A DNA stretch of 64,000 nt from a virus (taxonomy: Duplodnaviria > Caudoviricetes), in IMG/VR virus record IMGVR_UViG_3300010356_002264; one strand, 5' to 3'. Below, one piece after another: positions 29,820-43,384 of the stretch. Each line of letters begins with the position of its first letter. The stretch's first letter is position 1. Below the pieces are notes generated by a model, which saw nothing but the letters and a program-made list of their open reading frames with translations, was not told where the DNA came from and ran no database searches. Made by a program: the position numbers and the translations under genes.

Positions 29820-29881
29820 CTCAAGGAGCCACACATGCAGACCAAACGCGCGGCGAGGGGAGCTCGCAGTCAGGACCCCGC

Positions 29882-29954: not shown

Positions 29955-29973
29955 ACGATAAGGTAGAGTAGCT

Positions 29974-30075: not shown

Positions 30076-30078
30076 CAT

Positions 30079-30153
30079 GCGGGTTTGGCCGAGCGGCCCA
30101 GGCACCAGCTTCCCAAGCTGGACACGAGGGTTCAACTCCCTCAACCCGTACCA
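30079..30153 (+). tRNA. tRNA-Gly(CCC)
   Basis: ccagc-ttCCCaa-gctgg; CCA. Confidence 0.9.
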
Positions 30154-30154
30154 T

Positions 30155-30227
30155 GCGAGCGTCGCCCGACCGGCCGGGCACCAGCCTTCCAAGCTGGACC
30201 AAGCGGGTTCGAGTCCCGTCGCTCGCT
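30155..30227 (+). tRNA. tRNA-Gly(TCC)
   Basis: ccagc-ctTCCaa-gctgg. Confidence 0.9.
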
Positions 30228-30267
30228 CTGACAGCTCGGCGGGTAGTTCCTTCCCAGAGGAACTCCC

Positions 30268-30939
30268 ATGAAGATCTGCAAGGATGGCAAGCGGGTCGTT
30301 GTTACGGACCACGCCGCAACACGGTACGCCGCTCGGTACGACCGCGGGCTTGGGGTCGAGGAGGCCCGCACGAAGCTGGGGGTCCACATCATGAAGTCGA
30401 GCGCCAAGCGGCTCGTGGACAAGTCTCCCGCGGGGGACCCCCTCATGCTGCTACCGGAACTCGACTGCGTGGTGGTGATCAAGCCAGACAACCGAGAGGG
30501 GCACGAGGGGGACCTCGTGGTCCCCACGGTCCTCGACAACCCGGATCGAAAGGTGAACCGAGGGCCGATGTACGAGAAGCTCGCGGCGATGTCCAACCTG
30601 CGCGCGACCCTCCCCGCGCAGGTGCAGGATCCGCCGCCGCCTCAAGCCCCCGAGGAACCCGAGGAACCAGAGGAACCAGAGGAACCAGAGGAGCCGCCGA
30701 AGTCGACACCTAGCGTTGACTGGCTGGAGCTCCAGCAGCTTCGTCGAATGCGTGACCAGCTAGATGTCCTGGTCGCCTCGTTGCGGAAGCGTGAGCAGCA
30801 CATTCGGGTCTCGGTCGCGGGCATCCCGGAGAACCTGAACCTTCAGGGGTGGGCCGACCGCCACATGACGCTGGCCGTGGAGCTAGGGTCCATCGGGGAC
30901 GAGGTCGAGCGCTTGCTAGCGCAGACTGCTCGGGCGTAG
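30268..30939 (+). CDS. hypothetical protein with (EEP)n linker
   Basis: ATG 37 nt from ACAGCTCG; stop inside tRNA-Gln. Confidence 0.65.
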   Translation: MKICKDGKRVVVTDHAATRYAARYDRGLGVEEARTKLGVHIMKSSAKRLVDKSPAGDPLMLLPELDCVVVIKPDNREGHEGDLVVPTVLDNPDRKVNRGPMYEKLAAMSNLRATLPAQVQDPPPPQAPEEPEEPEEPEEPEEPPKSTPSVDWLELQQLRRMRDQLDVLVASLRKREQHIRVSVAGIPENLNLQGWADRHMTLAVELGSIGDEVERLLAQTARA

Positions 30940-31002
30940 CTCAACGGTAGCAGCGGCGGCCTTTGACACCGCAGGTTGGGGGTTCGAGTCCCTCCGCCCG
31001 AA
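30930..31002 (+). tRNA. tRNA-Gln(TTG)
   Basis: loop ctTTGac; U1:A72. Confidence 0.85.
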
Positions 31003-31041
31003 CTCACTGAACGTCGTATCACTCGCCACAGGGCGAGTCGC

Positions 31042-31113
31042 TGGGGTGTAGCTCAACTGGCAGAGCGCCGGTTTCTGAAACCGTCGGTTGAAGGTTCGAC
31101 TCCTTCCACCCCA
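31042..31113 (+). tRNA. tRNA-Gln(CTG)
   Basis: loop ttCTGaa. Confidence 0.9.
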
Positions 31114-31133
31114 ACTCAGCTTTGGATTCTTCT

Positions 31134-31217
31134 GGAGGGTGCTTCTGGGGTGGCCCGGAGCCTGTTTGCTAAACAGTGCGTGTGTAACAGCACAGGGTTC
31201 GACTCCCTCACCTTCCG
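31134..31217 (+). tRNA. tRNA-Ser(GCT), 8/4 fold
   Basis: GGAGGGTG/CACCTTCC; 4-bp T-stem; ttGCTaa; G73. Confidence 0.85.
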
Positions 31218-31235
31218 CTCAACTTGACCTGACAA

Positions 31236-31317
31236 GGGAAGCAAACGCGGTGTGGACCGCGACCCGTCTCGAAAACGGTGTGCTGCAAGGCATGGGGTTC
31301 GACTCCTCTGCTTCCCG
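31236..31317 (+). tRNA. tRNA-Ser(CGA), 8/4 fold
   Basis: GGGAAGCA/TGCTTCCC; ctCGAaa. Confidence 0.85.
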
Positions 31318-31321
31318 CTCT

Positions 31322-31407
31322 GGAGGGTATCTGCGGTGTGGACCGCAGCCTGCTTGGAACGCAGTGCGCTCGGGCAACTGGGCGGGGTTCGACTCCTCTA
31401 CCTTCCG
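31322..31407 (+). tRNA. tRNA-Ser(GGA), 8/4 fold
   Basis: GGAGGGTA/TACCTTCC; ttGGAac. Confidence 0.85.
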
Positions 31408-31410
31408 CTT

Positions 31411-31595
31411 TCCCGGTAGACCAAGAGAAGCGCTGTCCTGGCCCAAGTGCGCCGCAAGGCCCCAAGGTGTCCGGTCGTGCAGCGGGCGCGCATCTGGCGC
31501 GGTTGTAGAGGTCGCCACCCCGACGGGGGAAACCCCAGGAAGATGCCCTGGCAAAGGGATAGTGGTGGAGGTGCCGGTTGGATACCGGCCCGGGA
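31411..31595 (+). ncRNA. candidate structured RNA with tRNA-like top half (element A)
   Basis: TCCCGG/CCGGGA; CGCTGTCC/GGATAGTG; GCCGG-TTGGATA-CCGGC; GNRA loops. Confidence 0.45.
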
Positions 31596-31613
31596 TTTCA
31601 TGGTTGTGCAGAT

Positions 31614-31699
31614 GGAGGAACCACCCGACGTGGCGACGGGACCTGTCTTGAAAACAGGCGAGGTGCAAGCCCTTGGGGGTTCGACTCCCTCTTCTTCCG
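31614..31699 (+). tRNA. tRNA-Ser(TGA)
   Basis: cctgt-ctTGAaa-acagg; long variable arm. Confidence 0.88.
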
Positions 31700-31710
31700 C
31701 AAGGTAGAGT

Positions 31711-32178
31711 ATGCACATGTCCGAAGGAATGCAGAAGCTCCTAGACCTTCTCCTCACGCGTCCCCCCCTCTCTGAGGACCAAGTCAAGGCTCGCGGCCTC
31801 GCGTGGCGCGAGGCCGTCGTTGCGCTCATCGTGACCCTGGAGAACTGGCTACAACCGCTAGTCGCCGCGAACGTGGTCACGGTGACCCGCACGGAGCACG
31901 ACCTACAGGACATGTGGATGGGGTCTAACACCGTGCCGGGCCTCGTAATGCGGTACGGGCTCGTCGAGGTCCGATTCGAGCCCTTGGGTGTACAGGCGGC
32001 ACGCTGCGTAGCTCCTGACATCTTCATGGCAGAGGGTCGGGTCGACATCGTATGTGGGCCGCACAGCGTTCCCCTCATTCTCAAGGAAGAGAAGTGGTAT
32101 GCCGTCAGTCTTCGAGGTCGCAGCTCCGAGCTCACGGAGGACATCCTCTCCTGCATCCTCGCCGAGATGCTTTTGTAA
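31711..32178 (+). CDS. hypothetical protein
   Basis: ORF fills inter-tRNA gap. Confidence 0.65.
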   Translation: MHMSEGMQKLLDLLLTRPPLSEDQVKARGLAWREAVVALIVTLENWLQPLVAANVVTVTRTEHDLQDMWMGSNTVPGLVMRYGLVEVRFEPLGVQAARCVAPDIFMAEGRVDIVCGPHSVPLILKEEKWYAVSLRGRSSELTEDILSCILAEMLL

Positions 32179-32182
32179 CCTC

Positions 32183-32255
32183 GCTGGACGATGCTGTCGT
32201 GGGACGGCGCCGGCCTTGTAGCCCGGTCTTGGCGGTTCGACTCCGACGTCCAGCA
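32183..32255 (+). tRNA. tRNA-Thr(TGT), atypical 8-bp acceptor
   Basis: GCTGGACG/CGTCCAGC; 6-bp D-stem with GTGG loop; ctTGTag. Confidence 0.65.
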
Positions 32256-32379
32256 CTCACGATTCACCAGTTCGGCGCTCCGACGGAGGAGACCGGGGCG
32301 GGTCGCACCTGTCCTCGGCGGGGTGGTTAGAGCCCACCCGCTGAAGCCTTGATGGTTAGCCTCTGATGTTAACCGTTTC

Positions 32380-32706
32380 ATGCAGTGTCGATGGTGCAGG
32401 AAGAGTCTCCAGGGTCGGCAGCGGTCGTTCTGCTCTGTCTCGTGCAAGGTCACCTGGAACGTGACGGAGTGGAGACGCAGGACGAAGAAGAAGGCTGTCG
32501 AGTACCTCGGAGGACAGTGCGTCAGGTGCGGCTACAACAAGTGCCTCCGGTCCCTGGTCTTCCACCATCGAGATCCGGCCGAGAAAGAGTTTCAGATTGC
32601 TAGTAGCCACATACGAGGGTGGGAGAGGATTCGCAAAGAGTTAGATAAGTGCATACTGCTATGTGCGAACTGTCACGGAGAACAGCACGAGGACATTCCC
32701 AGGTAG
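32380..32706 (+). CDS. HNH endonuclease
   Basis: CVRCG..FHHRDP..KC.LLCANCH..H. Confidence 0.85.
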   Translation: MQCRWCRKSLQGRQRSFCSVSCKVTWNVTEWRRRTKKKAVEYLGGQCVRCGYNKCLRSLVFHHRDPAEKEFQIASSHIRGWERIRKELDKCILLCANCHGEQHEDIPR

Positions 32707-32771
32707 CTCAATGGCAGAGCACGAAGCTGTTAACTTCGGTTATGGGGGTTCGAGTCCCTCCTTGGGAGCCA
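32697..32771 (+). tRNA. tRNA-Asn(GTT)
   Basis: cgaag-ctGTTaa-cttcg; GCCA. Confidence 0.92.
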
Positions 32772-32784
32772 GCGACGAAAACAT

Positions 32785-32857
32785 GCCCCTTGTAGCTCAC
32801 CGGTCGAGCAGCAAGCCGTTAACTTGCCTGTAGTGGGTTCGACTCCCACCGGGGGCG
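32785..32857 (+). tRNA. tRNA-Asn(GTT) variant with C33
   Basis: gcaag-ccGTTaa-cttgc. Confidence 0.75.
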
Positions 32858-32893
32858 CTAAGTAACAAAGCTATGTAGGAACATAGTCACCAT

Positions 32894-32967
32894 GGTCCGG
32901 TAGCCAAGTGGTAAGGCACCTGCCTGCAAAGCAGACATCGCCGGTTCGATTCCGGCACGGACCTCCA
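32894..32967 (+). tRNA. tRNA-Cys(GCA)
   Basis: ctGCAaa; U73-CCA. Confidence 0.9.
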
Positions 32968-33009
32968 AATAGTCAGCTCCAGTACGTCGGGTCGCATCAA
33001 CGTAGGAGC

Positions 33010-33279
33010 ATGAGTCGACAGCTACTTCCGTTCGCGATGTTCCCTCCCGGAACCAAGGTCCGCTTCAAGGACGCGCTCGACCGCGCCCCGGACTTCACGG
33101 TACCGGCCGGGGCGCTCGGTGTGGTGATGGTGGTGGACGAGGAGTTCGAGCGGATCGTCGTCAAGGTGACCTCCCCCGAGGTGCCCGGCCTCACGGACGA
33201 CCCCGAGTGGAAGGGAGAGGTCATCTTCTGCCTCCCCGAGGGGGACGACCCGGTCGCGGACCTAGAGGTAGTGGCGTAG
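33010..33279 (+). CDS. hypothetical protein
   Basis: ATG 37 nt from motif at 32973. Confidence 0.65.
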   Translation: MSRQLLPFAMFPPGTKVRFKDALDRAPDFTVPAGALGVVMVVDEEFERIVVKVTSPEVPGLTDDPEWKGEVIFCLPEGDDPVADLEVVA

Positions 33280-33306
33280 AGTTTAAGCAGCTAGCCCGAG
33301 GCATGA

Positions 33307-33412
33307 GCCCCCGCTGGGGCCACGTCGAGGAAAGGAGGACGTCCTGGAGGGCACCAGGGCGGGATCGACCTACCTCGACGCCGGTGGGCCGGGTTGAAGT
33401 CCCGTAGGGGGC
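33307..33412 (+). ncRNA. candidate structured RNA with tRNA-like top half (element B)
   Basis: GCCCCC/GGGGGC; CGTCGAGG/CCTCGACG; CGGG-TTGAAGT-CCCG. Confidence 0.4.
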
Positions 33413-33447
33413 CTCTCTTTCCCAGTATAGAAGCGAGTTCGCAGTAT

Positions 33448-33522
33448 CAGCGTGTAGCTCAGCCTGGCCAGAGCACGTGCTTGGGGTGCACGGGGTCGGA
33501 GGTTCAAGTCCTCTCACGCTGA
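33448..33522 (+). tRNA. tRNA-Pro(GGG)
   Basis: cgtgc-ttGGGgt-gcacg. Confidence 0.92.
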
Positions 33523-33559
33523 CTCAGTTTTGAACGTCAAAATGTGATAGGTTCACTTC

Positions 33560-34183
33560 ATGGCGAAACCTGAAGTGAAGACCGAGGCGATCCGGCTCCG
33601 TGTCGAGGAACGGAAGTCCCTCCGAGACATTAAGAAGCTTACGGGCGTGTCGCAGGGCATCTTGAGTTTGTGGCTGCGCCCCTACCCACTCTCATCTGAA
33701 GAGCGGAAAGCGATCGCCAAAGCGAAGCGTGCGCTGCAACCTGATCCAGCCCGCAGAGATCCAGGACTCGAAGCAAAGGCACGCACGAACCTATGCGGAC
33801 AGATGACCGAGAGGGATCATAAGGGGCGCGTCGCCGAGATGATGGTTGCGCTTCGGCTCGCCGAGCAAGGGTTCCTCGTCTATAAACCCTTGTTTGACTG
33901 CACGCGCGTCGACTGGCTCGCCTACAACCCAAAGACTGGTACGTACAATCGAATACAAGTCAAATGGTGTAAGTCTCCAAAGACAGGAAGGGCTCAAGTA
34001 AGTCTACGATGTAGACACGGAAAATTAAGACGTACATATACAGAATCAGACGTAGACTACGTTATAGGTTATGATCAATGTACGGACACAACTTACGTAT
34101 GGTCGATTAGTGAAGTATCTCACATTAAATCCGATATCACCGTCAATGAAAACGCACGTGAACGATGGGACAAACTGAGGTAA
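33560..34183 (+). CDS. PD-(D/E)XK endonuclease with N-terminal HTH
   Basis: KGRVAE, YKPL, VDWL, RIQVK; lower GC. Confidence 0.85.
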   Translation: MAKPEVKTEAIRLRVEERKSLRDIKKLTGVSQGILSLWLRPYPLSSEERKAIAKAKRALQPDPARRDPGLEAKARTNLCGQMTERDHKGRVAEMMVALRLAEQGFLVYKPLFDCTRVDWLAYNPKTGTYNRIQVKWCKSPKTGRAQVSLRCRHGKLRRTYTESDVDYVIGYDQCTDTTYVWSISEVSHIKSDITVNENARERWDKLR

Positions 34184-34184
34184 T

Positions 34185-34258
34185 CGGGGTGTAGCGAAGC
34201 TTGGTATCGCGCCTGATTCGGATTCAGGAGATCGTGGGTTCAAATCCCGCCACCCCGA
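34185..34258 (+). tRNA. tRNA-Pro(CGG)
   Basis: cctga-ttCGGat-tcagg. Confidence 0.92.
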
Positions 34259-34260
34259 CA

Positions 34261-34425
34261 ATGGAACACCAAGTAAGTAAGAATCCATCGAGATGGGTTC
34301 TCCCCGTCCTGATAGGACTTATTACAGCTCATCTTTGGCACGCATGGGTGTTGGATCGGCACGTCGAAGCAATCAACAAGATCCGTATCGAACTGCATAA
34401 AGTGCAACAAAACTTGAAAAAGTAG
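34261..34425 (+). CDS. small membrane protein
   Basis: One TM segment; low GC. Confidence 0.5.
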   Translation: MEHQVSKNPSRWVLPVLIGLITAHLWHAWVLDRHVEAINKIRIELHKVQQNLKK

Positions 34426-34429
34426 GTTC

Positions 34430-34503
34430 CCGCACGTAGCACGGTCTGGTAGTGCATCCGGCTGATATCCGGGAGGTCGAAGGTTCAAATCCTTCCGTGC
34501 GGA
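34430..34503 (+). tRNA. tRNA-Ile(GAT)
   Basis: loop ctGATat. Confidence 0.88.
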
Positions 34504-34505
34504 CT

Positions 34506-34582
34506 GTGAACGAAGGCGAAGTGGTCGAGCCCCCTGGCTGTGAACCAGGGCTAAGCGGGTTCAAGTCCCGTCGTTCACCCCA
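34506..34582 (+). tRNA. tRNA-His(GTG), no encoded G-1
   Basis: cctgg-ctGTGaa-ccagg; C73-CCA. Confidence 0.85.
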
Positions 34583-34587
34583 CTCAT

Positions 34588-34665
34588 GGTGGTCGTAGCT
34601 CAACTGGCTAGAGCGTCGGGCTGTGAACCCGAAGACGAGGAGTTCGACTCTCCCCGATCACCCCA
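34588..34665 (+). tRNA. tRNA-His(GTG)
   Basis: tcggg-ctGTGaa-cccga; G-1; CCCA. Confidence 0.9.
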
Positions 34666-34666
34666 C

Positions 34667-34744
34667 GTCCCGGTAGCTCAGTCTCAGGTAGAGCATCCGG
34701 CTGAAACCCGGAGGTCGGCGGTTCGATTCCGCCTCGGGACACCA
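34667..34744 (+). tRNA. tRNA-Phe(GAA)
   Basis: ctGAAac; ACCA. Confidence 0.92.
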
Positions 34745-34745
34745 T

Positions 34746-34818
34746 CCCCTGGTAGCTCATGTGGTACGAGCGTCGGACTGAAAATCCGAAGATCGTGGTT
34801 CGACTCCACGCCGGGGGA
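34746..34818 (+). tRNA. tRNA-Phe(GAA)
   Basis: tcgga-ctGAAaa-tccga. Confidence 0.9.
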
Positions 34819-34944
34819 CTAGCGGGCAGGGCGGGACGCGCCGCCTCGCGGTGGCGTTGGGCTTCGGCCCACCCCTGCCTGCTCCGGGCCGCTGACGGGC
34901 CCGTCCGATGACGGCGGAGAAGCGGGATGCCGCGCGCAGCACCT

Positions 34945-35016
34945 GGGGTCGTAGTGATAGCGGTAGCACGCCTGCATGGCATGCAGGTAGCAGGGGTTCG
35001 ACTCCCCTCGGCTCCA
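34945..35016 (+). tRNA. tRNA-Ala(GGC)
   Basis: atGGCat; G3:U70. Confidence 0.9.
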
Positions 35017-35031
35017 CTCAGGTAGACGGTC

Positions 35032-35175
35032 GGAACGTGGGGGCGGTACCTCACGCGGGGCGGCTGTAGCCGGCTGGACGAGCATCGCTCGCGTCCCGGG
35101 AGGGCTCCTGCGGCGCGGTGGGAGACCACCTGCGGGCGAGCGCGATAGCGCCGAGCGCTCGGTCCCTCACGTTCC
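35032..35175 (+). ncRNA. candidate structured RNA
   Basis: 12-bp terminal helix GGAACGTGGGGG/CCCTCACGTTCC enclosing several hairpins. Confidence 0.4.
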
Positions 35176-35179
35176 TTTC

Positions 35180-35210
35180 TCAGCTCCGGTTCTCGTGAAA
35201 TTTTCGACTG
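35180..35210 (+). promoter_or_regulatory. TCAGCTCC-N17-CGACTG promoter-like motif (representative copy)
   Basis: 37 nt before ATG 35217; no SD. Confidence 0.75.
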
Positions 35211-35216
35211 TCCGTC

Positions 35217-35519
35217 ATGGACGCCAACGAACTCAAGAACCTCGCCGACGGTGTTAACGAGAGCAAGCGTGCTGAGACGGAGCGCGCGAACCTAGAGAAG
35301 GTAAACCAGGTGCTCAGGCGCTGCGAGGATGTGGCCCGCCAGGGAGGCTACAAGCTAACCTACATGGACTCCTGCCTCAACCCGCAGGTCCTTGGGAAGC
35401 TGACGGCCTCGAAGGCGAACAACGGGTTGGGGCTCGTCGTAGTGGACAAGTCGGACCGCTCGCGATCGCGCCCCCACTTCAGCTACGAGATCTCCTGGGA
35501 GGGGGCTGAGGGTAAATGA
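35217..35519 (+). CDS. hypothetical protein
   Basis: Follows motif. Confidence 0.65.
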   Translation: MDANELKNLADGVNESKRAETERANLEKVNQVLRRCEDVARQGGYKLTYMDSCLNPQVLGKLTASKANNGLGLVVVDKSDRSRSRPHFSYEISWEGAEGK

Positions 35520-35554
35520 AGGTAGTACGTGGCGGCTTGACGCCACCTGACATC

Positions 35555-35630
35555 GCGGGGTTAGCTCATGTGGTAGAGCGCTGGTGTGACACGCCAGAGG
35601 TGGGAGGTTCAAGTCCTCCACTCCGCACCA
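35555..35630 (+). tRNA. tRNA-Val(GAC)
   Basis: gtGACac; ACCA. Confidence 0.9.
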
Positions 35631-35631
35631 T

Positions 35632-35706
35632 GGGGTCGTAGTGATAGCGGTAGCACGCCTGCCTCGCACGCAGGTAGCAGGGGTTCAATTCCCCTCGACT
35701 CCACCA
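35632..35706 (+). tRNA. tRNA-Ala(CGC)
   Basis: ctCGCac; G3:U70; ACCA. Confidence 0.92.
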
Positions 35707-35740
35707 GACAAGTCGCCCACGAGGGCAGAAGGGAGAGACC

Positions 35741-36049
35741 ATGCGCCACAGCATCGACAAGTTTCCCGCCTGGAAGAACGCCTCACGGCGGGAGGTCTCG
35801 ACCCTGTTCGCGCCCTTCAGCCCCTACTGCCTGATGAGCCTGGCGAAGCTCTTCCGCGGTGAGGACGTGGTGGTGGGCAACTCTGCCCCCGTGCTGGCCC
35901 GACGCGACCGGCCCGGCCTGGCCCCCAAGAAGCGGGGCGGCCTGAATGAGCACGGCCGGTCCTGCTCCTGCTGCAACCCTCGCCAGGGGCGGCCCCGCAA
36001 GCCCTACGACCGGGCGCGGACCCCCAGGATCAGCGCGGACCTGGACTAG
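35741..36049 (+). CDS. hypothetical protein
   Basis: GGGAG RBS; HGRSCSCC motif. Confidence 0.55.
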   Translation: MRHSIDKFPAWKNASRREVSTLFAPFSPYCLMSLAKLFRGEDVVVGNSAPVLARRDRPGLAPKKRGGLNEHGRSCSCCNPRQGRPRKPYDRARTPRISADLD

Positions 36050-36202
36050 CTCAGCTCCGGCCGTGTGCGGCCTTGACACGACCCTCTGGTCCGAGGGTCT
36101 CTGTCATAGGGTGGTTGGCCCCCGCTCGGGATTCTCTGTGGCGGGAAGTTCAGAGAACCTCGGGCCGCTTCCCTTCAACCTCATGATGCCGCATCATGAG
36201 GT

Positions 36203-36619
36203 ATGTACGAGAATACGAAGGTTAAGGGTGAGGCTGCCGAGGTCGAAGTCCTGGTAAACCTTAAACGTCGGGGTTATCGAGTTTCGGTTCCGTTTGGAGA
36301 GAACTCACCTTATGATCTTATCGTCGAGTCTCCATCTGGCATGCTGTACCGGATACAGGTACGTGCTGCGTCGTGGAAGCTGGGACACCTCGTACTATCG
36401 CTTAGGTGCGTCAGCAAGAACTACAGTCGCACCCTCGACAGGTCACGAATCGAAGCTTTCATAGTTTGGGATGGAACGACCTGCTATGTCGTACCTTGTG
36501 TTGACACACAAGGATGCGAAACGACATTCTCTCTCCGACGAGACGCAGCGAAAAACGGGCAGAAGAAAAAGACGCGGGATGCGGACACCTATGCGAATGC
36601 GTTTCACTTGATTCCATAA
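36203..36619 (+). CDS. PD-(D/E)XK endonuclease
   Basis: KGEAAE, VSVPFGENSPYDLI, RIQVR. Confidence 0.85.
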   Translation: MYENTKVKGEAAEVEVLVNLKRRGYRVSVPFGENSPYDLIVESPSGMLYRIQVRAASWKLGHLVLSLRCVSKNYSRTLDRSRIEAFIVWDGTTCYVVPCVDTQGCETTFSLRRDAAKNGQKKKTRDADTYANAFHLIP

Positions 36620-36691
36620 GGGCGTTTAGCTCAATCGGTAGAGTGATGGCCTTGCAAGCCGTCGACGGGGGTTCGATTCCCCCAACGTCCA
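36620..36691 (+). tRNA. tRNA-Ala(TGC)
   Basis: ctTGCaa; G3:U70. Confidence 0.9.
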
Positions 36692-36814
36692 CAGGGTTTG
36701 CCGGCGACCGCGACGTCGCGACAGAGCGGTTGGGGCGTCCCGCCTAATCGTTGGGCTACAAGGCTCCTCGCCTATCGCCCCCAGGTACAGTCAGAGGTGC
36801 CCTCCCTCACCGTG

Positions 36815-37636
36815 ATGACTGGAGACAACTTCATCCAGGTTCCCACGCTAGCCGATGCGTCAGTCGACGTAGTGGTGACGAGCCCGCCATACTGGGGACA
36901 GCGCGAGGGCCCAGGGATTGGTCAAGAGCCAGATCCCCGTGAGTACCTACGGTCGGTCGCGAGGGTCTTCGAGGTCCTGCGACCCAAGATGAAGCATCGG
37001 GGCATCCTGTGGGTGAACCTTGGGGACGCCTACAACACCCCGGTGAACTGGAGCCCTCAGAGCGCGCACAAGTACAGCACGCTTGGCCCACAGCGGGCCG
37101 GACTCCCTGCGGGGAATGCGGCCTACGTCAAGCCGCGGGGGACGCGCAGGGCCTTCGTGAAGCCCGAGGTGCCATGGCTCCGGTATGGGAGCCTCCTGGC
37201 GCTACCACATCGGCTCGTCGCCGCCCTGTGCGACTTGGGCTACCTCCTGCGAGGGGAGGTCATCTGGCGGAAGCGCAACCCACTGCCGGAGGGACGATGC
37301 CGCCGGCCGCACCGCCAGCACGAGGTGATCCTCCTACTCGCGCTCCGAGAGGACCACGAGTTCCGGGTGAGCCCTCCGGTGGGGAGCGTCTGGGAGGTGG
37401 CGAACGAACTTCCCAGAGGGGAGCGACACTACTCGCGCTTCCCCGTCGAGATCCCGCGACGGTGTATAGAGGCGTACGGGCTCGTGGGAGGTGAGGTACT
37501 GGTGCTCGACCCCTTCTCCGGGTCGGGAACGACCGGGATCGCCGCCCGGTCGCTGGGATGCTCGTTCGTAGGCGTTGAGATCGATCCTCTTCGCGCCGAA
37601 GAATCACGTAGGACACTAGGGATTACAGGCGTGTAG
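36815..37636 (+). CDS. beta-class N4C/N6A DNA methyltransferase (start uncertain)
   Basis: TSPPY precedes LDPFSGSGTT. Confidence 0.9.
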   Translation: MTGDNFIQVPTLADASVDVVVTSPPYWGQREGPGIGQEPDPREYLRSVARVFEVLRPKMKHRGILWVNLGDAYNTPVNWSPQSAHKYSTLGPQRAGLPAGNAAYVKPRGTRRAFVKPEVPWLRYGSLLALPHRLVAALCDLGYLLRGEVIWRKRNPLPEGRCRRPHRQHEVILLLALREDHEFRVSPPVGSVWEVANELPRGERHYSRFPVEIPRRCIEAYGLVGGEVLVLDPFSGSGTTGIAARSLGCSFVGVEIDPLRAEESRRTLGITGV

Positions 37637-37702
37637 CTCAGCGGCAGCAGCATCGGCCTTACAAGCCGAGGGTCGAGGGTTCAACTCCCTCCGCGCCTAC
37701 CA
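37627..37702 (+). tRNA. tRNA-Val(TAC)
   Basis: tcggc-ctTACaa-gccga; ACCA. Confidence 0.9.
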
Positions 37703-37703
37703 C

Positions 37704-37779
37704 GGCCGCGTAGCTCATCTGGCAGAGCGCCTGGGTCACATCCAGGAGGTAGAGGGTTCAACTCCCTCCGTGGCTACCA
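37704..37779 (+). tRNA. tRNA-Val(CAC)
   Basis: cctgg-gtCACat-ccagg; ACCA. Confidence 0.9.
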
Positions 37780-37786
37780 AGTTCTC

Positions 37787-37859
37787 GGGTGTGCAGCTCG
37801 ACTGGTCGAGCGGCGGCTTCATACGCCGATGGTTGAGGGTTCGAGTCCCTCCGCACCCA
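37787..37859 (+). tRNA. tRNA(CAT), Met or Ile2
   Basis: loop ttCATac. Confidence 0.85.
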
Positions 37860-37909
37860 CTCCATTCTGATGGATAGTTTCAGCGTCCGAGCCGAAAGAA
37901 CTACCCCTC

Positions 37910-38332
37910 CTAATGGATAGTTCGACGCAGCGCGCTCAGGACGAGGCGGCGCGCGACGCGTGCGTCGGACGCTGTCGGCTTGGACCGAGAGTTCCGGCCC
38001 GGAGCGTCGAGCCACATGTCGGCCGCGCAGTGCAGGGCATCAGGCCCGTAGGTGTAGGTCGGGGTCCAGTGGGAGACCCGGAGCTTGTCGGGGTCGCCGC
38101 CCCAGGCGATGACGTCGTGCCGCAACTTCGGGTCCTGACTGGCCGCCAGAGTGATCTTGGCCCCGTGGTCCTTGGGTAGGAGGGACAGCGGCTTGTCCAG
38201 CACGATGCGCATCGCTCGACTGAACAGTTCCCGGTGTTTGTCGCTCAGGGGATTCTCAGGTGGGGGGCCACTCGATCCACCGTCCGAGTAAGGTAGGGTT
38301 CGACCGGGACGTCCGCGACGATCATGTGACAC
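37910..38332 (-). CDS. hypothetical protein, antisense to array
   Basis: ORF fills gap; start uncertain. Confidence 0.45.
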   Translation of the reverse strand: MSHDRRGRPGRTLPYSDGGSSGPPPENPLSDKHRELFSRAMRIVLDKPLSLLPKDHGAKITLAASQDPKLRHDVIAWGGDPDKLRVSHWTPTYTYGPDALHCAADMWLDAPGRNSRSKPTASDARVARRLVLSALRRTIH

Positions 38333-38544
38333 GCGCTGGTCGACATGGACCGCGGCGTTCGCCTTCTGGGGTCGTGAGTACGATGGTAGGTGACCTGGTG
38401 AGGCTTCACGTAGTCCCCGACGTCGATCTTCTGGATGACGTCGAGCGCCTGGTTCACGAAGCGGAACATCGCCGCCTCGTCTCCAAGCGCCCTGGAGACT
38501 TCAGTACCGATGCCAAGAAGGTAGCCGTCGAGAGCGTGGTTCAT
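38245..38544 (-). CDS. hypothetical protein, antisense to array
   Basis: MNHALDGYLLG..; high GC3 in first half. Confidence 0.45.
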   Translation of the reverse strand: MNHALDGYLLGIGTEVSRALGDEAAMFRFVNQALDVIQKIDVGDYVKPHQVTYHRTHDPRRRTPRSMSTSACHMIVADVPVEPYLTRTVDRVAPHLRIP

Positions 38545-38554
38545 GACACACCTG

Positions 38555-38628
38555 GGAGGTGTAGCTTAGCTGGTCAAAGCAGTGGGCTCATAACCCGAAG
38601 ATCGAGGGTTCAAGTCCCTCCACCTCCA
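38555..38628 (+). tRNA. tRNA(CAT) with initiator-type anticodon stem
   Basis: GGG-ctCATaa-CCC. Confidence 0.88.
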
Positions 38629-38640
38629 CCTGACGAAACC

Positions 38641-38844
38641 ATGGCACAGCAAAACATCATATACGAGGATCAACTTCCCTGTGTGGGCTGCGGAAGTTCC
38701 GTTCCGGTCAGCCTGACGGTCGAGCTTCTTCACGGGGAGAAGAAGGACGTGGCCGCCAGGATGGGTCGCGAGTGGGAGTTGACGCTAGCTAAGCTAAGCG
38801 AGACGGGCGTACGTTGTGACGACTGCCACTCGCAGGAAGTTTGA
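38641..38844 (+). CDS. small Zn-ribbon protein
   Basis: CVGC..CDDC. Confidence 0.55.
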   Translation: MAQQNIIYEDQLPCVGCGSSVPVSLTVELLHGEKKDVAARMGREWELTLAKLSETGVRCDDCHSQEV

Positions 38845-38862
38845 CTGAAGGTAACTGATCCT

Positions 38863-38935
38863 GCCGTCGAGGCTCATACGGATGGGCGCCTGCTTGGTAA
38901 GCAGGAGGCAGCGAGTTCGAGTCTCGCCGACGGCA
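38863..38935 (+). tRNA. tRNA-Thr(GGT)
   Basis: cctgc-ttGGTaa-gcagg. Confidence 0.9.
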
Positions 38936-38937
38936 CT

Positions 38938-39071
38938 GACTTCGTCCCTCGAGAAGGCCCTACAAGCCGGTTGGTTCAACTCCAACCTCCCCCACTCTAC
39001 GGGGGAGACGCCTCGCGGAGAGGCAGCAGACCGTAAATCTGTCACCAATGGTCTTCCCACTCGACGAAGTT
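38938..39071 (+). ncRNA. permuted tRNA-mimic / Y-RNA-like RNA, copy 2
   Basis: GACTTCGTC/GACGAAGTT; CCTCGAG x CCCACTC; AAGGCC/GGTCTT; T-arm, closed acceptor, D-arm, GCAGA-ccGTAaa-TCTGT. Confidence 0.8.
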
Positions 39072-39075
39072 TCCC

Positions 39076-39150
39076 GCTCCCGTAGCACAACTGGATAGTG
39101 CACAGGTCTACGAAACCTGGTTCATGGGGGTTCGAGTCCCTCCGGGAGCA
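39076..39150 (+). tRNA. tRNA-Arg(ACG)
   Basis: caggt-ctACGaa-acctg. Confidence 0.92.
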
Positions 39151-39152
39151 CT

Positions 39153-39300
39153 AGCTTCACCCCTCGTGTGGGCCACACACGCGACGCTATCCGGGTTCGA
39201 CTCCCGGTCCCTCCTCACTGTGGGGGGATTGCCTAACGGTAAGGCAGCAGATCAACCATCTGTCGAAAGACGCAACACGGCCCACCCACTCGGTGAAGCT
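39153..39300 (+). ncRNA. permuted tRNA-mimic / Y-RNA-like RNA, copy 3
   Basis: AGCTTCACC/GGTGAAGCT; CCTCGTG x CCCACTC; TGGGCC/GGCCCA; same arm order. Confidence 0.8.
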
Positions 39301-39336
39301 CACCTTCTACGAAGTGACTATGAAGTCACATCTGGT

Positions 39337-39753
39337 ATGAAGCGCTGCGCGACATGCCAGACCCACAAACCGCTCGACGAGTTCACTCGGAACAAGACGA
39401 AGAAGGACGGCCGCAACGCCTCCTGTAAGGTCTGCCATCGAGCCTATGTGCGACGGCACTACCAGAAGAACAAGGCTTACTACGTCAGCAAGGCGCGAAA
39501 GTACCAGGCTGGCATCAAACAGATCATCCGAGAGCTAAAGACGGTCCCCTGCGCCGACTGCAAGAGGACATACGACTGGTGGGTGATGGACTTCGACCAT
39601 GCACGCGGCACCAAGAAGTTCACCATATCTCGTATGCAAGGACGTGTCGGTTTACAGAACGCACTCTTCGAGATCGCGAAGTGCGACATCGTCTGCTCCA
39701 ACTGCCACAGGGATCGCACGTACAAGCGGAGGATCGCCTCCAGCACCCCGTAG
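39337..39753 (+). CDS. HNH endonuclease
   Basis: CATC..CKVC; CADC..DFDH..KCDIVCSNCH. Confidence 0.85.
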   Translation: MKRCATCQTHKPLDEFTRNKTKKDGRNASCKVCHRAYVRRHYQKNKAYYVSKARKYQAGIKQIIRELKTVPCADCKRTYDWWVMDFDHARGTKKFTISRMQGRVGLQNALFEIAKCDIVCSNCHRDRTYKRRIASSTP

Positions 39754-39763
39754 CTCTCGTCAA

Positions 39764-39910
39764 GTTCGTTCCGCCCCTCGAGCAGGTCACACAAGCGATT
39801 GCAGGTTCGACTCCTGCCTCCCCGACTTCACCGGGGAGTAGCCAAACGGTAAAGGCACTGGAACAAGGATCCATCAAAAAGCACACGGCCTACCCACTCG
39901 GCGGAACGAC
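39764..39910 (+). ncRNA. permuted tRNA-mimic / Y-RNA-like RNA, copy 4
   Basis: TCGTTCCGCC/GGCGGAACGA; CCTCGAG x CCCACTC; AGGTC/GGCCT; same arm order. Confidence 0.8.
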
Positions 39911-39951
39911 CCTCTCAGCTCCAGGTGCTCACGGAAACAGGAGCGCCTCCC

Positions 39952-40377
39952 ATGCCCCCCCGACCCCCTCAGACCCTCAGCCCATCGCAGGTCACCATGC
40001 TGCGCGCGGCGAGCGCCGGCCGGGGACCGACCGACCACCTGGTGGGTCGAGGGCGCAGCTTCCATGGTGGGGCCGTGGGGACGCGGTTCTCGCTGACGCG
40101 CCGGGGCCTGCTTGACCGGCAGGGGAACATCACCGCGGCCGGCGTGGACCGGCTCAGGGAGCTCGACCTCTGGGCGCTGCGGGCGCGGGTAGCCGGCCTT
40201 GGAGCCGACGACCTCCGCGCGCTGCGCGAGTGCGTCGAGTACGCGCTCCCCCGCTTCCGTGACGCCTACACCGACCACATCCTGGAGGAAGGCGAGGAGG
40301 CCAGGCTGCGTGCCCGTCACGGGCGAGCGGAGCGTCTCCAGGCCATCCTCTTCCCCCCGAACGCTCCCGTAACCTAG
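39952..40377 (+). CDS. hypothetical protein (possible wHTH)
   Basis: ATG 37 nt from motif at 39915; LTRRGLL..ITAAG. Confidence 0.6.
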   Translation: MPPRPPQTLSPSQVTMLRAASAGRGPTDHLVGRGRSFHGGAVGTRFSLTRRGLLDRQGNITAAGVDRLRELDLWALRARVAGLGADDLRALRECVEYALPRFRDAYTDHILEEGEEARLRARHGRAERLQAILFPPNAPVT

Positions 40378-40435
40378 CTGGACAGGGTGCTGGCCTCCGA
40401 AGCCAGATGTGGGGGTTCGAGTCCCTCCGGGAGCA
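40363..40435 (+). tRNA. tRNA-Arg(CCG)
   Basis: ctggc-ctCCGaa-gccag. Confidence 0.92.
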
Positions 40436-40474
40436 CAGCTTGACAAGCCATCACCTGCTTAGATACAAGACGAC

Positions 40475-40930
40475 ATGGGCCGACATCACACGAAGGATAA
40501 GGGTGATGCAGGAGTGGGGTTTGTCATCGCGGACTGTATGCGGCATGGGATCCAGATATGTCTACCGATTAGCGAGCATCTACCGTTCGACTTGATCATG
40601 GTTGACGAGACGGGGAAACTGGCCCGAACTCAGGTTAAGTATCGCGCAGCTAAGGACGGAGTCGTTGAGGTGGGCCTCCGCTCGATATGGAGCGACCGCA
40701 ACGGAGTACATACGAAGACGCCTAGCTACGATCAGTTCGACGCTGTGGCCGTCTTCTGTCCCAACACGACGTGTGTGTACTACGTACTTGCTAGCGAGCT
40801 ATCTGGCATACGAAGCAGCTTCGTTATCCGTCTTTCCCCTTCCGAAGATGGTCAGACCAAGAGAGTAAGGCTGGCCTCGACGTTTACGAATCCATTACGT
40901 GTATTTGCACCCGTCGCCAAATCTGGATAA
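40475..40930 (+). CDS. PD-(D/E)XK endonuclease
   Basis: TKDKGD, PISEHLPFDLI, RTQVK. Confidence 0.85.
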   Translation: MGRHHTKDKGDAGVGFVIADCMRHGIQICLPISEHLPFDLIMVDETGKLARTQVKYRAAKDGVVEVGLRSIWSDRNGVHTKTPSYDQFDAVAVFCPNTTCVYYVLASELSGIRSSFVIRLSPSEDGQTKRVRLASTFTNPLRVFAPVAKSG

Positions 40931-40981
40931 GGCACGAGTCTTCTAAACTCGCATCTGTGGGTTCGATCCCCACCGGGTGCA
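40907..40981 (+). tRNA. tRNA-Arg(TCT)
   Basis: cgagt-ctTCTaa-actcg. Confidence 0.9.
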
Positions 40982-41004
40982 CAACCAGCGGGTAGATCGG
41001 CCCC

Positions 41005-41208
41005 ATGAGCTCATACCTCCGGTACCTGTGCCCCAAGTGCCAGCAGCCCGTCCAGGAGGACGCCGACCACCCCGCGGTGGGGTTCTGCAACACGGACGGC
41101 TGCCAGGTCGGGGCGATCCAGACGCGCTACTGCGCGCTCGTCGACGTCACCGTCGACGGCCTGGTCCTGGAGGTCGTCTCCCCGGCCTCCCACCTGTACA
41201 CGGGATGA
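41005..41208 (+). CDS. small Zn-binding protein
   Basis: CPKC..CNTDGC. Confidence 0.55.
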   Translation: MSSYLRYLCPKCQQPVQEDADHPAVGFCNTDGCQVGAIQTRYCALVDVTVDGLVLEVVSPASHLYTG

Positions 41209-41282
41209 AGAAAATCGACCAGGACGTGCGGATTCTCAGCTCGGGTCGTGCGGGTGGTTCCGACCTTCCTGTGTAAGACGCA

Positions 41283-41427
41283 GGGCTTCGGGAAAAACGG
41301 TGGTGCTCATCGAGCACACGGGACATCGACCCCGAACGAAGTCAGGCAGGCTTCTGTTGCTATGTCGGCAACTTGGCACCACCCGCGACGGGTGGAGGAC
41401 GCGGGTTCAACTCCCGCCAGGGGCCCG
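41283..41427 (+). ncRNA. candidate structured RNA with tmRNA-like 3' end (element C)
   Basis: GGGCTTC/GGGGCCC; GGTGGTGC/GCACCACC; GGAC-GCGGG-TTCAACT-CCCGC; motif promoter at 41236. Confidence 0.5.
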
Positions 41428-41801
41428 ATTGGGTGTAAGTCTGCGCGTGACCCTGACCTGGATGATGACGGTCACTCATCGCCAGGGCAGTGCGCGGTCC
41501 GAAGCCCAGACATCTATGGGGTCAACCCCACCATGCGGCCTGCCTCGTGCGGCCTGTCGGGGAACACCCCACCTTCTATGAGGACCCGTCCCAACGGGAG
41601 ACCTACGGGACACTGCCAAGTGGATTGGTCCTCACCCTCTTGATGAGAACCCTGCCTACCCAGGTGGGGGCGAAACCGGCTCCGTTGTCCGCAATGTAAA
41701 CGACCGAGCAGTTCCGTCTCATCCTCCACACAACTAGAGGGGACGCAGCGACGTCAGACACCGCGCGTCCTCCCGCGGTCGGAGCGTGCTCCGACCGTTC
41801 C

Positions 41802-41874
41802 GTTCCCGTAGCCAAGCGGATAAGGCTCCTGTTTCCTAAACAGGCATTCGCAGGTTCGATTCCTGCCGGGGACA
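41802..41874 (+). tRNA. tRNA-Arg(CCT)
   Basis: cctgt-ttCCTaa-acagg. Confidence 0.92.
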
Positions 41875-42188
41875 CGAAAGGCGAGCCGCGGTGAACCGGC
41901 CCCGTCCGAGCGCGAGTTCACGCGCGAGGGTGGCAAGCTGCGCGGACGCTTGTTTTACGGGCAGGTAGCTCTACATGAGCGGGTGCGTGGGCGGCAAGTC
42001 GCTCGACGCTGGAGCCTCAGTCCAACTCTGAGGTGACTGGTTCACCCCGGTCCCTGCCCCCCGTTTCCACGAACCGAAGGAGCCGACCGTGCGCACATAG
42101 TTGGCTCCGCGAGGTCAGACCCGTGCGTGGGTCTGACCTCGTAGGTACGCCTGCCTGGTAAGTACGCTATGCGAAACTACGTTAGTGT

Positions 42189-42677
42189 ATGCCAGTCAAG
42201 TACACGCGCGAAGCTCTCACCAAGGTCGTAGCCTCCTCCACCAGCATCCTCCAGGTTCTCCGCAAGCTCGGTGTCAGACCAGCAGGCGGAAGCCACTCCT
42301 ACATCACGGGCCTGATCAAGCGGCACGGTCTCGACACGGCCCACTTCACGGGTAAGGGTTCAAACCGAGGCACACACCATGTAGGGGGTCCAGACCGGAT
42401 CCCCTGGCACGAGGTGCTCGTGCTAGATCGCCTCGGAGGTAGGAAGGAGGTCACGTCGCGTCTCCGGCGCGCAATGGTCGAGGCGGGCATCCCCTACGTC
42501 TGCAAGCTGTGCGGCAACCCGCCCGAGTGGTGCGGTAGACCACTCACCTTACAGATCGACCACATGAACGGAGACTTCCTCGACAACCGGAGAGAGAACC
42601 TCCGGTTCACCTGTCCAAACTGTCACTCCCAGACGGACAACTGGGGTAGTAAGAATCGTTATGCTCGGGTGGTGTAA
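42189..42677 (+). CDS. HNH endonuclease
   Basis: CKLCG..LQIDHMNG..DNRRENLRFTCPNCH. Confidence 0.9.
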   Translation: MPVKYTREALTKVVASSTSILQVLRKLGVRPAGGSHSYITGLIKRHGLDTAHFTGKGSNRGTHHVGGPDRIPWHEVLVLDRLGGRKEVTSRLRRAMVEAGIPYVCKLCGNPPEWCGRPLTLQIDHMNGDFLDNRRENLRFTCPNCHSQTDNWGSKNRYARVV

Positions 42678-42745
42678 TGGCAGCCACGTTAGCTTGAGGT
42701 GCTAATGGTCGAAAGACCGTGCGGGTTCGACTCCCGCCCCGAGTA
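42663..42745 (+). tRNA. tRNA-Leu(GAG)
   Basis: ttagc-ttGAGgt-gctaa; long variable arm. Confidence 0.92.
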
Positions 42746-42760
42746 CTCACAGTCCTTCCT

Positions 42761-42846
42761 GCGCAGATGCTGGAACCTTGGTAGACAACACGGCCTCAGA
42801 AACCGTGGCCCTTCGGGGCGTGGGGGTTCGACTCCCCCTCTGCGCA
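42761..42846 (+). tRNA. tRNA-Leu(CAG)
   Basis: loop ctCAGaa. Confidence 0.9.
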
Positions 42847-42851
42847 CTCCT

Positions 42852-42934
42852 GCTCGTGTGGTGGAATGGCAGACACACCAGACTTAGGATCTGGCGGCCT
42901 TCGGGCCGTGAGGGTTCGACTCCCTCCACGAGTA
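42852..42934 (+). tRNA. tRNA-Leu(TAG)
   Basis: ccaga-ctTAGga-tctgg. Confidence 0.92.
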
Positions 42935-42997
42935 CTCTGGTCGACGAGCTACAAGCGGGAACGGCGCCTGACACCCGACGCTCGTCGACCGGTTCAT

Positions 42998-43083
42998 GCC
43001 CAGGTGGTGGAACTTTGGTAGACACACCGGCTCGAGATGCCGGCGCTCGCGAGGGCGTGCAGGTTCGACTCCTGTCCTGGGTA
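42998..43083 (+). tRNA. tRNA-Leu(GAG) variant with C33
   Basis: ccggc-tcGAGat-gccgg. Confidence 0.8.
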
Positions 43084-43131
43084 CCGAGGTACGAAGTATG
43101 GATCACTTATGTCGCCCACGAGCAGACCTGA

Positions 43132-43215
43132 GCTCGGGTGGCGGAACTAGGCAGACGCGCCGTCCTTAAAACTCGGTGCCCACGTGGCGTAGGGGTTCGA
43201 TTCCCCTCCCGAGCA
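43132..43215 (+). tRNA. tRNA-Leu(TAA)
   Basis: ctTAAaa; two mismatches in anticodon stem. Confidence 0.8.
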
Positions 43216-43253
43216 CACCTCTTCATCTCTCGCTCTTCCAGCGCTCAACATAC

Positions 43254-43338
43254 GCCCAGGTGGCGGAACTTCGGCAGACGCGCTCGCCTCAAAACCGAGT
43301 GTCTACGTGACGTGTGGGTTCGACTCCCTCCCTGGGCA
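43254..43338 (+). tRNA. tRNA-Leu(CAA)
   Basis: loop ctCAAaa. Confidence 0.85.
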
Positions 43339-43384
43339 CTTTAACGGTAGACATACCGTATCAACACATCATAGACTCTACCTA

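Follow-up and report, generated by a model that had tools for sequence, protein, structure and literature searches.

The window considered here, i.e., the whole 64,000-nucleotide stretch of DNA that was analysed (66% G+C), belongs to a 331.5-kb contig of a giant phage from activated sludge (Caudoviricetes; IMG/VR record IMGVR_UViG_3300010356_002264). Within its tRNA gene array lie four copies of an RNA element in which the arms of a tRNA, in circularly permuted order, are mounted on a two-helix scaffold. The existence of this four-copy family, with a common order of parts and beyond what chance would yield, is confirmed by the tests described below. As to its nature, we place at about even the chances that the copies are stable, non-decoding tRNA-mimic RNAs of the superfamily of YrlA, the tRNA-like Y RNA to which Ro60/Rsr binds in bacteria (Chen et al. 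2014, PMC4201824). What is new relative to YrlA is a true anticodon arm, the presence of multiple copies, and a location in a tRNA array whose surroundings, over the 64 kb analysed, contain no Ro60/TROVE gene.

Architecture and covariation of the four copies

All four copies start with a first stem (stem1) of 8-10 bp, a 7-nt loop strand CCWCGWR, a second stem (stem2) of 6 bp and an A/C-rich linker beginning CTACA or ACACA. This is followed by a T arm with the loop TTCRACT and by an acceptor stem, its 3' strand first, closed by a loop of 7-8 nt. Copies 2-4 alone then continue with two bases, a D arm, a single A and an anticodon-like arm of 5 bp and 7 nt; copy 1 is devoid of both of these arms and has a 10-nt single strand instead. 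The elements end with a linker, the 3' strand of stem2, the loop strand CYCACTC and the 3' strand of stem1. In the three long copies the two strands of the internal loop read CCTCG(A/T)G and CCCACTC, and the acceptor stem has 7 bp, as against 6 bp and a C.A mismatch in copy 1. The acceptor-closing loop begins A-C in copies 1, 2 and 4 and T-C in copy 3. RNAalifold pairs two positions within the 7x7 internal loop (G5-C3' and G7-C1'), and on this prediction its strictly unpaired core may be 4x4 (CCWC / ACUC) rather than 7x7.

A covariance model built from copies 2-4 (hereafter R1) was run on both strands of the window with filters off. The scores of its own building copies (138-157 bits) are high by construction; copy 1, which was left out of the model, was nonetheless recovered at 59 bits. 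The best match outside the copies reached 28.6 bits, and those of about 20 bits or more proved to be adjacent tRNA genes read as one. RNAalifold finds 38 pairs in the three long copies, 16 of them with compensatory changes. In a model-guided alignment of five sequences (the four copies and an ortholog of copy 1 from a related contig, L019), 95% of the paired cells are complementary, whereas sliding the partners lowers this to 35-50%; both sides have changed in 19 of 36 pairs, and the observed pairing score was reached by none of 500 shuffles. The minimum free energy z-scores of the copies range from -2.5 to -3.9. The paralogs are otherwise only ~50-60% alike, yet their internal loops are invariant. 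An earlier note on this DNA, made from the letters alone, had listed three copies at 38938-39910 and a fourth at 29974, with stems that differ and still pair around a nearly invariant loop, and had called for a covariance-model search. All four were located with the order of parts that it claimed, its statement on the stems and the loop holds, and in the search, run with the copy 2-4 model, only these four stand out in the window. Two other structural readings were discarded: an alternative D-arm fold of copy 1 (GCGG/CCGC) is lost in the L019 ortholog, where stem2 is kept, and, upon inspection by hand, none of a bulge-helix-bulge, a kink-turn (tandem G.A) or a palindromic dimer (CUCGAG) is conserved in the internal loop across copies.

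Relatives were reached through a neighboring 223-aa protein (66-83% identical), yielding four syntenic contigs. The L019 ortholog of copy 1 (L019:8923-9022; R1 53 bits), 88% identical to it, occupies the equivalent position, with tRNA-Lys(ttt) on one side and tRNA-Gly(ccc) on the other. No change from copy 1 is seen in the T arm or the acceptor, while the stems display the replacements U-A to C-G and G.U to A-U; the core is almost unchanged next to a protein of only 67% identity. In this ortholog, as in copy 4, stem2 begins with a C.A mismatch. Copy 1 is missing from L020-L022 and copies 2-4 from L023; two further loci (L050, L051) begin too near the gene to cover the position of copy 1. In place of the copy 2-4 block, L023 has ~380 bases (L023:14294-14675) between tRNA-Arg(ccg) and tRNA-Met, with no tRNA, called gene or R1 match.

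Variants with ~90% identity are present on contigs assembled from further sludge and wastewater runs, and in several lineages position 3 of the 5' loop strand switches between T and A. The homolog of copy 4 from run X5 has the loop-closing acceptor pair 1:72 changed from G-C to C-G (39824 G>C with 39832 C>G), a rewritten acceptor loop, and an anticodon-like loop altered from ACAAGGA to ATTGTAA on a preserved stem; the new loop is canonical, with U33 and A37. Another X5 contig joins 39124, in tRNA-Arg(acg), to 40410, in tRNA-Arg(ccg), thereby skipping 1285 bases that hold copy 3, a Cys-rich open reading frame (ORF), copy 4 and a 141-aa ORF. As ~27 bases at the joint are common to both Arg genes, the block with copies 3 and 4 appears to have been gained or lost by recombination between tRNA genes. 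Two RNA libraries (X9, X23) contain assembled contigs over copies 2 and 3, a weak hint of expression, because such contigs may derive from DNA. All four runs consist of contigs, from which ends, strand and RNA level are not readable; uncovered parts, and runs with a small share of the words, were left out of account.

The tRNA-like body and its proposed relation to YrlA

The tRNA-like character of the long copies becomes apparent when the permutation is undone. To this end, they were cut at the acceptor loop and rejoined in the normal order, with the scaffold replaced by 4-5 nt. ARAGORN accepts the resulting cores as complete tRNAs, namely Tyr(gta) for copy 2, Val(aac) for copy 3 and Leu(aag) for copy 4. 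With the full or half scaffold kept it makes no call, the arm then exceeding the length that the program allows. These results agree with the earlier note in its view of the elements as circularly permuted tRNA mimics of the YrlA kind, which retain a separate anticodon-like arm and join the scaffold at the variable-loop position. Direct reading of the sequences shows that the D loops carry GG and the T loop is TTCRACT, and that copies 3 and 4 have U8, A14, G18-G19, A21 and the option of pairing A15 with U48. A G.U pair is found at 3:70 in copy 1, its L019 ortholog and copy 3, while copy 2 combines G1:C72, A73 and a GUA anticodon with a long arm at the variable position. In contrast to these features, position 33 is C in all three anticodon-like loops of the window; copy 3 additionally has C37, and copies 3 and 4 have A34.

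The halves of the copies have no close match among the 43 local tRNAs except for one anticodon arm, which argues against their being recent rearrangement debris. The exception is that of copy 2, which is, as had been noted before, a single base from the arm of the local tRNA-Tyr (29516-29601), the sole change being U33 to C. This tRNA-Tyr(gta) itself starts with CCCGGCG and ends with CGCCGGG-A-CCA, and hence has C1:G72 as its first pair. In tRNA-Tyr, C1:G72 is the archaeal/eukaryotic type of first pair, the bacterial type being G1:C72. The complementarity of the anticodon-like loops to neighboring tRNAs was also considered and dismissed, as it is no more than expected with 43 tRNAs nearby.

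At gathering thresholds, Rfam reports only tRNAs. With permissive thresholds, the YrlA model (RF02553) gives partial matches of 22.1 bits to copies 3 and 4, restricted to model positions 24-84 (T arm, acceptor and D arm), and none to copies 1 and 2; the gathering cut-off of this model, 69 bits, is not reached by any window copy. The search of the copies against the Rfam YrlA model, which the earlier note had proposed as a check on novelty, therefore returned no strong full-length match. The YrlA of the phage Bxz1, which lies beside its Ro gene, itself attains only 32.5 bits against this model, so that missing the cut-off is normal for phage members and the cut-off is a weak test for them. This Bxz1 RNA (L034:2430-2600; Bxz1 129.9-130.1 kb) is located upstream of the Ro gene gp220 and contains a small additional hairpin, GGTGG-ACA-CCACC, which follows the D arm and precedes the 3' strand of the closing stem. 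The hairpin does not resemble an anticodon arm, but its presence shows that additional stem-loops on this side also occur outside the window family.

A closer connection to YrlA is provided by the tRNA arrays of other huge phages (L046, L047), which were reached through homologs of the 138-aa Cys-rich ORF. R1 finds three intergenic, non-tRNA elements in these arrays. One of them, L047:837-967, also aligns with RF02553 over its full length (positions 1-114) at 51.7 bits (E 1.4e-9, or 2.6e-11 in a shorter search). The proposed Rsr-binding motif of YrlA, near the 5' end, has been published as GNCGAAN0-1G (PMC4201824). Both L047 elements match it exactly, as GGCGAATG in L047:837-967 and as GCCGAACG in the other. 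In the window it is approximate, with CACGAACG in copy 1 and the L019 ortholog (5/6 fixed positions), CTCGAG in copies 2 and 4 and CTCGTG in copy 3. Another YrlA feature, YUAY after the scaffold, where the V region starts, is found as CTAC in copies 1 and 2 and the L019 ortholog, and as ACAC, a partial match, in copies 3 and 4. The L046 and L047 arrays also encode transfer-messenger RNA (tmRNA), and each YrlA-like element in them abuts a tRNA gene.

The YrlA consensus runs from stem1 through the internal loop AUGCu / aAaAcUuG and stem2 to CUAc, the T arm, the acceptor and the D arm, and it shares with the copies a (C)UACA after stem2 and a 3' loop strand ending in ACUYG. More generally, both have paired 5' and 3' ends with two helices around an internal loop, then (C)UAC, and both have the permuted order of terminal stem, T arm, loop-closed acceptor, D arm and terminal stem, with the positions of the tRNA tertiary pairs kept; copy 1 follows this module order without a D stem. 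YrlA is also known from actinobacteriophages, and the bridging homologs link both families. As one of the bridging elements found by R1 also matches RF02553 over its full length and the consensus plan is shared, the window family would constitute a divergent branch of the YrlA superfamily, a placement drawn from sequence comparison that we consider to stand at roughly an even chance. The earlier proposal of a new Y-RNA class consequently overstates the distance, since the huge-phage elements tie the family to the Rfam YrlA.

Several differences from the known YrlA RNAs accompany these likenesses. In YrlA the closing helix stands where a tRNA has its anticodon arm, whereas in copies 2-4 it leaves from the variable-loop position, and the anticodon arm is kept one base after the D stem. 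The internal loop in the window is symmetric (7x7), CCWCGWR / CYCACUC as against the consensus given above. Further, there are four copies within a tRNA array with Rfam scores far under the cut-off, and no Ro60/TROVE gene is encountered over the 24-29 kb that flank the copies to the left and to the right.

Certain observations weigh against the assignment. The copies score only 22 bits (copies 3 and 4) or not at all (copies 1 and 2) with RF02553. The GNCGAA motif is approximate in them and adjoins stem2, whereas in the YrlA consensus it stands where stem1 ends. The bridge consists of two or three sequences with R1 scores of 23-31 bits, in the range of false matches to adjacent tRNAs, and the contigs in the RNA libraries could come from DNA. 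Moreover, there is no TROVE/Ro60 gene in the 64-kb window or in the parts seen of the L046 and L047 loci (8.5-20 kb), whereas in published cases the distance from YrlA to Ro60, both on one strand, is at most ~4 kb. In the window, the earlier note's remark on the missing gene holds by two routes: PF05731 (TROVE) has no match in the 20 largest ORFs, and a tblastn search with the Bxz1 Ro protein gives a best E of 3.1. A scan with RF02553 over 151 genomes of one class yielded sub-threshold matches only; of these five, the two best (L041, L042) were inspected and fall on adjacent tRNA genes.

Proposed mode of action and alternative readings

If the copies are indeed non-decoding relatives of YrlA, they would be transcribed together with the tRNAs of the + strand array and set free by the enzymes that act on the neighboring tRNAs (RNase P and 3' trimming). 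The copies fold into a tRNA-like body, expected to be L-shaped, that is mounted via its variable-loop position on the two-helix scaffold. The near-invariant, pyrimidine-rich internal loop is a putative protein-binding site, whose partner would, by homology, most likely be of the Ro60/Rsr type, supplied by the host or by a gene in another part of the 331-kb genome. The 7-bp acceptor stem followed by N73-C74 would permit RNase P to open the loop and the CCA enzyme to complete the 3' end, leaving a CCA-tailed tRNA look-alike in two pieces, which the scaffold would keep joined, and the fast-changing anticodon-like loop may be the part presented to tRNA-recognizing factors. For the earlier note's proposal that anticodon nucleases or ribosomes may be these factors, the sole support is the complete exchange of the loop between strains on a preserved stem. 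The opening step is proposed because the YrlA of Mycobacterium smegmatis, whose acceptor stem also has 7 bp, undergoes RNase P cleavage and CA addition in vivo, and its RNase P-cut, CCA-completed halves stay bound to Rsr (PMC4201824). The 7-bp acceptor of that RNA is likewise closed by a loop, and the window loops start with N73-C74 as this pathway needs. However, the window copies bear identity-like elements that are undescribed there, i.e., G3:U70, or GUA together with A73, and their own processing is predicted.

The same body could instead act without Ro. The varied anticodon-like loops would then be decoys or sponges for host tRNA-targeting nucleases or for tRNA-modifying or charging enzymes, with the scaffold loop binding a phage protein or simply stabilizing the RNA. 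We judge this unlikely, albeit the foremost of the alternatives. It would suit the location of the copies in a phage tRNA array that is likely to counter tRNA depletion (for the idea see PMC10264068), the near-identity of the copy 2 arm to that of the phage's own tRNA-Tyr, and the C33 of all three window loops, which should disable decoding while preserving the look of the loop; the dearth of a nearby Ro60 gene and the exchange of the copy 4 loop in a strain from another plant are also in its favor. On the other hand, the nuclease or target is hypothetical, and only four loop sequences are at hand, in which relaxed constraint would likewise produce fast change. Copy 1 and the L046 and L047 relatives keep the scaffold without an anticodon arm, so that the arm cannot provide the core function of the family. 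The compensatory changes (19/36 pairs), the invariance of the loops across paralogs only ~50-60% alike, the 88% identity of copy 1 in L019 next to a protein at 67%, and the lack of close local tRNA matches beyond the Tyr anticodon arm all run counter to a reading of the copies as cis-acting processing or spacer structures, or as decaying relics of tRNA rearrangement, with no function in trans. That reading, which we hold to be the least probable of those considered, does accommodate the evident dispensability of the copies (L020-L022 are without copy 1, L023 without copies 2-4, and one X5 contig skips copies 3 and 4) and their placement among presumably mobile HNH-type ORFs.

A further alternative takes the elements for true circularly permuted tRNA genes, in which RNase P opens the acceptor loop and 3' trimming and CCA addition follow. 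With the stem1 ends sealed or just paired, the result would be a class-II-like tRNA in one or two pieces with a very long variable arm, charged with Tyr (copy 2) or, via G3:U70, with Ala (copies 1 and 3), that may enter translation or some other aminoacyl transfer. All arms are present in copies 2-4 and ARAGORN accepts their re-permuted cores, which fails for copy 1. The Tyr-like set of features in copy 2, the recurrent G3:U70 (copy 1, its L019 ortholog and copy 3), the canonical U33 and A37 of the X5 variant and the precedent of RNase P cleavage with CCA addition on a YrlA are in keeping with it. Even so, we deem it quite improbable, in light of C33 in place of the near-universal U33 in three window copies, C37 in copy 3, and the want of an anticodon arm in copy 1. 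The anticodons AAC and AAG are not known to be in use as such in bacteria. The Tyr-GTA of copy 2 would duplicate the normal tRNA-Tyr of the array, while the missing Asp and Glu tRNAs are not supplied. Permuted tRNA genes occur in the red alga Cyanidioschyzon merolae and in a few other algae and archaea, where, as in the window, the 3' half lies upstream of the 5' half with a short intervening loop and paired outer ends. These mature into decoding tRNAs through a bulge-helix-bulge cut by the splicing endonuclease and a circular intermediate. The window copies differ from them in having neither a bulge-helix-bulge nor U33, in the break falling in the variable arm and in the bacterial host; by hand, no register of the 7x7 loop provides a 4-bp helix with staggered 3-nt bulges (the 3-4-3 form). 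Highly doubtful, in our estimation, is the more elaborate proposal that copies 2-4 are the first complete circularly permuted phage tRNAs, serving as charged look-alikes against host tRNA-directed immunity or for non-ribosomal aminoacyl transfer. The same low estimate covers its details taken jointly, namely release with the ends paired in stem1 and RNase P-opened, CCA-tailed molecules with a giant variable arm, in two pieces or ligated by phage RNA ligases, which would be charged with Tyr or, via G3:U70, with Ala and which C33 would bar from normal decoding.

Whichever of these holds, the elements are of interest to the fields of Y RNAs, tRNA mimics and phage tRNA arrays. For the tRNA-like half of bacterial Y RNAs, only possible roles were listed by Chen et al. 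2014 (PMC4201824). The window offers a natural series on one scaffold in one genome, with a minimal copy (T arm and acceptor) and three full versions, in which one can test what each part binds, whether the acceptor loop is opened by RNase P and the CCA enzyme, and whether charging occurs via G3:U70 or via GUA and A73. Several huge phages that are not related to one another carry YrlA-like RNAs within their tRNA arrays, without a Ro60 gene next to them. This leaves two options: a Ro60 that is supplied by the host or works from afar, or Ro-independent uses of such RNAs in the conflict between phage and host over tRNAs. Such array-embedded YrlA-like RNAs may represent a wider, undescribed habit of huge phages.

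Genomic setting and other comparisons

ARAGORN counts 43 tRNA genes in the window, 42 of them on the + strand (29.2-43.3 kb) and the remaining one on the - strand. The copies are separated from the flanking tRNAs by spacers of only 1-5 nt (Table 1). Promoter-like or terminator-like sites were not found at the copies, and their counts over the array are at chance level. The 138-aa Cys-rich ORF has no Pfam family at the cut-off, and some of the homologs listed for it bear source names such as McrA; the arrangement of its Cys and His residues and the varied surroundings in which its homologs occur suggest an HNH-like, mobile gene. BLAST searches of the region and the flanking protein against cultured phages returned nothing, or only tRNA-Arg. 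Motif-pattern scans of viral, metagenome and genome collections, which are without the window's own contig and so do not inform on spread, retrieved no family member; the matches, upon being re-scored with R1 or folded, proved to be ordinary tRNAs or chance.

Table 1. Coordinates of the four copies, their parts, adjacent genes and the related elements from other huge phages (window positions unless a locus is given)
Feature	Position	Strand	Remarks
Copy 1	29974-30075	+	start also given as 29975; short form; R1 59 bits
Copy 1, 5' parts			stem1 10 bp; loop CCACGAA; stem2 6 bp; then CTACAAGC
Copy 1, T arm	30005-30021
Copy 1, acceptor hairpin	30022-30042		G3:U70, then A-C
Copy 1, 3' parts			10-nt single strand, stem2', loop CTCACTC, stem1'
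Copy 2	38938-39072	+	R1 138 bits; re-permuted core tRNA-Tyr(gta) by ARAGORN
Copy 2, stem1	38939-46 / 39063-70
Copy 2, internal loops	38947-53 and 39056-62
Copy 2, stem2	38954-59 / 39050-55
Copy 2, T arm	38970-86
Copy 2, closed acceptor	38987-39007
Copy 2, D arm	39010-24
Copy 2, anticodon-like arm	39026-42		loop CCGTAAA
Copy 3	39153-39301	+	parts span 39153-39300; R1 148 bits; re-permuted core tRNA-Val(aac) by ARAGORN
Copy 3, acceptor and D loop			G3:U70 in acceptor; D loop AACGGTA, canonical
Copy 3, anticodon-like arm	39247-39263		loop TCAACCA
Copy 4	39767-39909	+	parts span 39766-39909; R1 157 bits; re-permuted core tRNA-Leu(aag) by ARAGORN
Copy 4, anticodon-like arm	39858-39874		loop ACAAGGA
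tRNA-Gly(ccc)	30079-30153	+	3 nt after copy 1
tRNA-Thr(ggt)	38863-38936	+	ends 2-3 nt before stem1 of copy 2; ARAGORN and Rfam
tRNA-Arg(acg)	39076-39151	+	5 nt after copy 2, ends 1 nt before copy 3
Cys-rich ORF, 138 aa	39337-39753	+	between copies 3 and 4
Related element	L047:837-967		R1 30.9 bits over 875-964; directly after tRNA-Arg(acg), like copy 3
Related element	L047:5545-5660		T arm, 7-bp closed acceptor, loop ACTCTGG
Related element	L046:6758-6898		R1 29.4 bits over 6759-6898, full length; locus 41% G+C
Parts of the L046 element			stem1 9 bp, loop ATGCCC / CCTACTTG, stem2 9 bp, T arm, closed acceptor, D arm

Two other kinds of phage or bacterial RNA invite comparison. Two-piece tmRNAs (RF04321, cyano_tmRNA) have the same order of T arm, acceptor 3' strand, loop and 5' strand, and share G3:U70 and A73 with copy 1; the respective Rfam models give weak matches over the T arm and acceptor, at 10.8 and 7.4 bits. 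They differ from the window copies, which have no tag reading frame and no pseudoknots and, with 100-150 nt, fall short of the size of a tmRNA; ARAGORN calls none in the window. The species 1 and 2 RNAs of T4, and RNA1 and RNA2 of T5, are non-decoding structured RNAs among phage tRNA genes, presumably freed by tRNA-processing enzymes, but have the normal order of parts and no two-helix scaffold.

Just upstream of the array, a conserved 449-aa protein (26920-28269), for which neither Pfam nor tblastn against cultured phages gives a match, keeps its syntenic place in all relatives seen (homologs in L019-L022). The + strand array itself (29234-43339, 42 genes) is without tRNA-Asp, tRNA-Glu, Ser(gct/gga) and Pro(tgg), and it contains doublets for Asn, His, Phe and Leu(gag).

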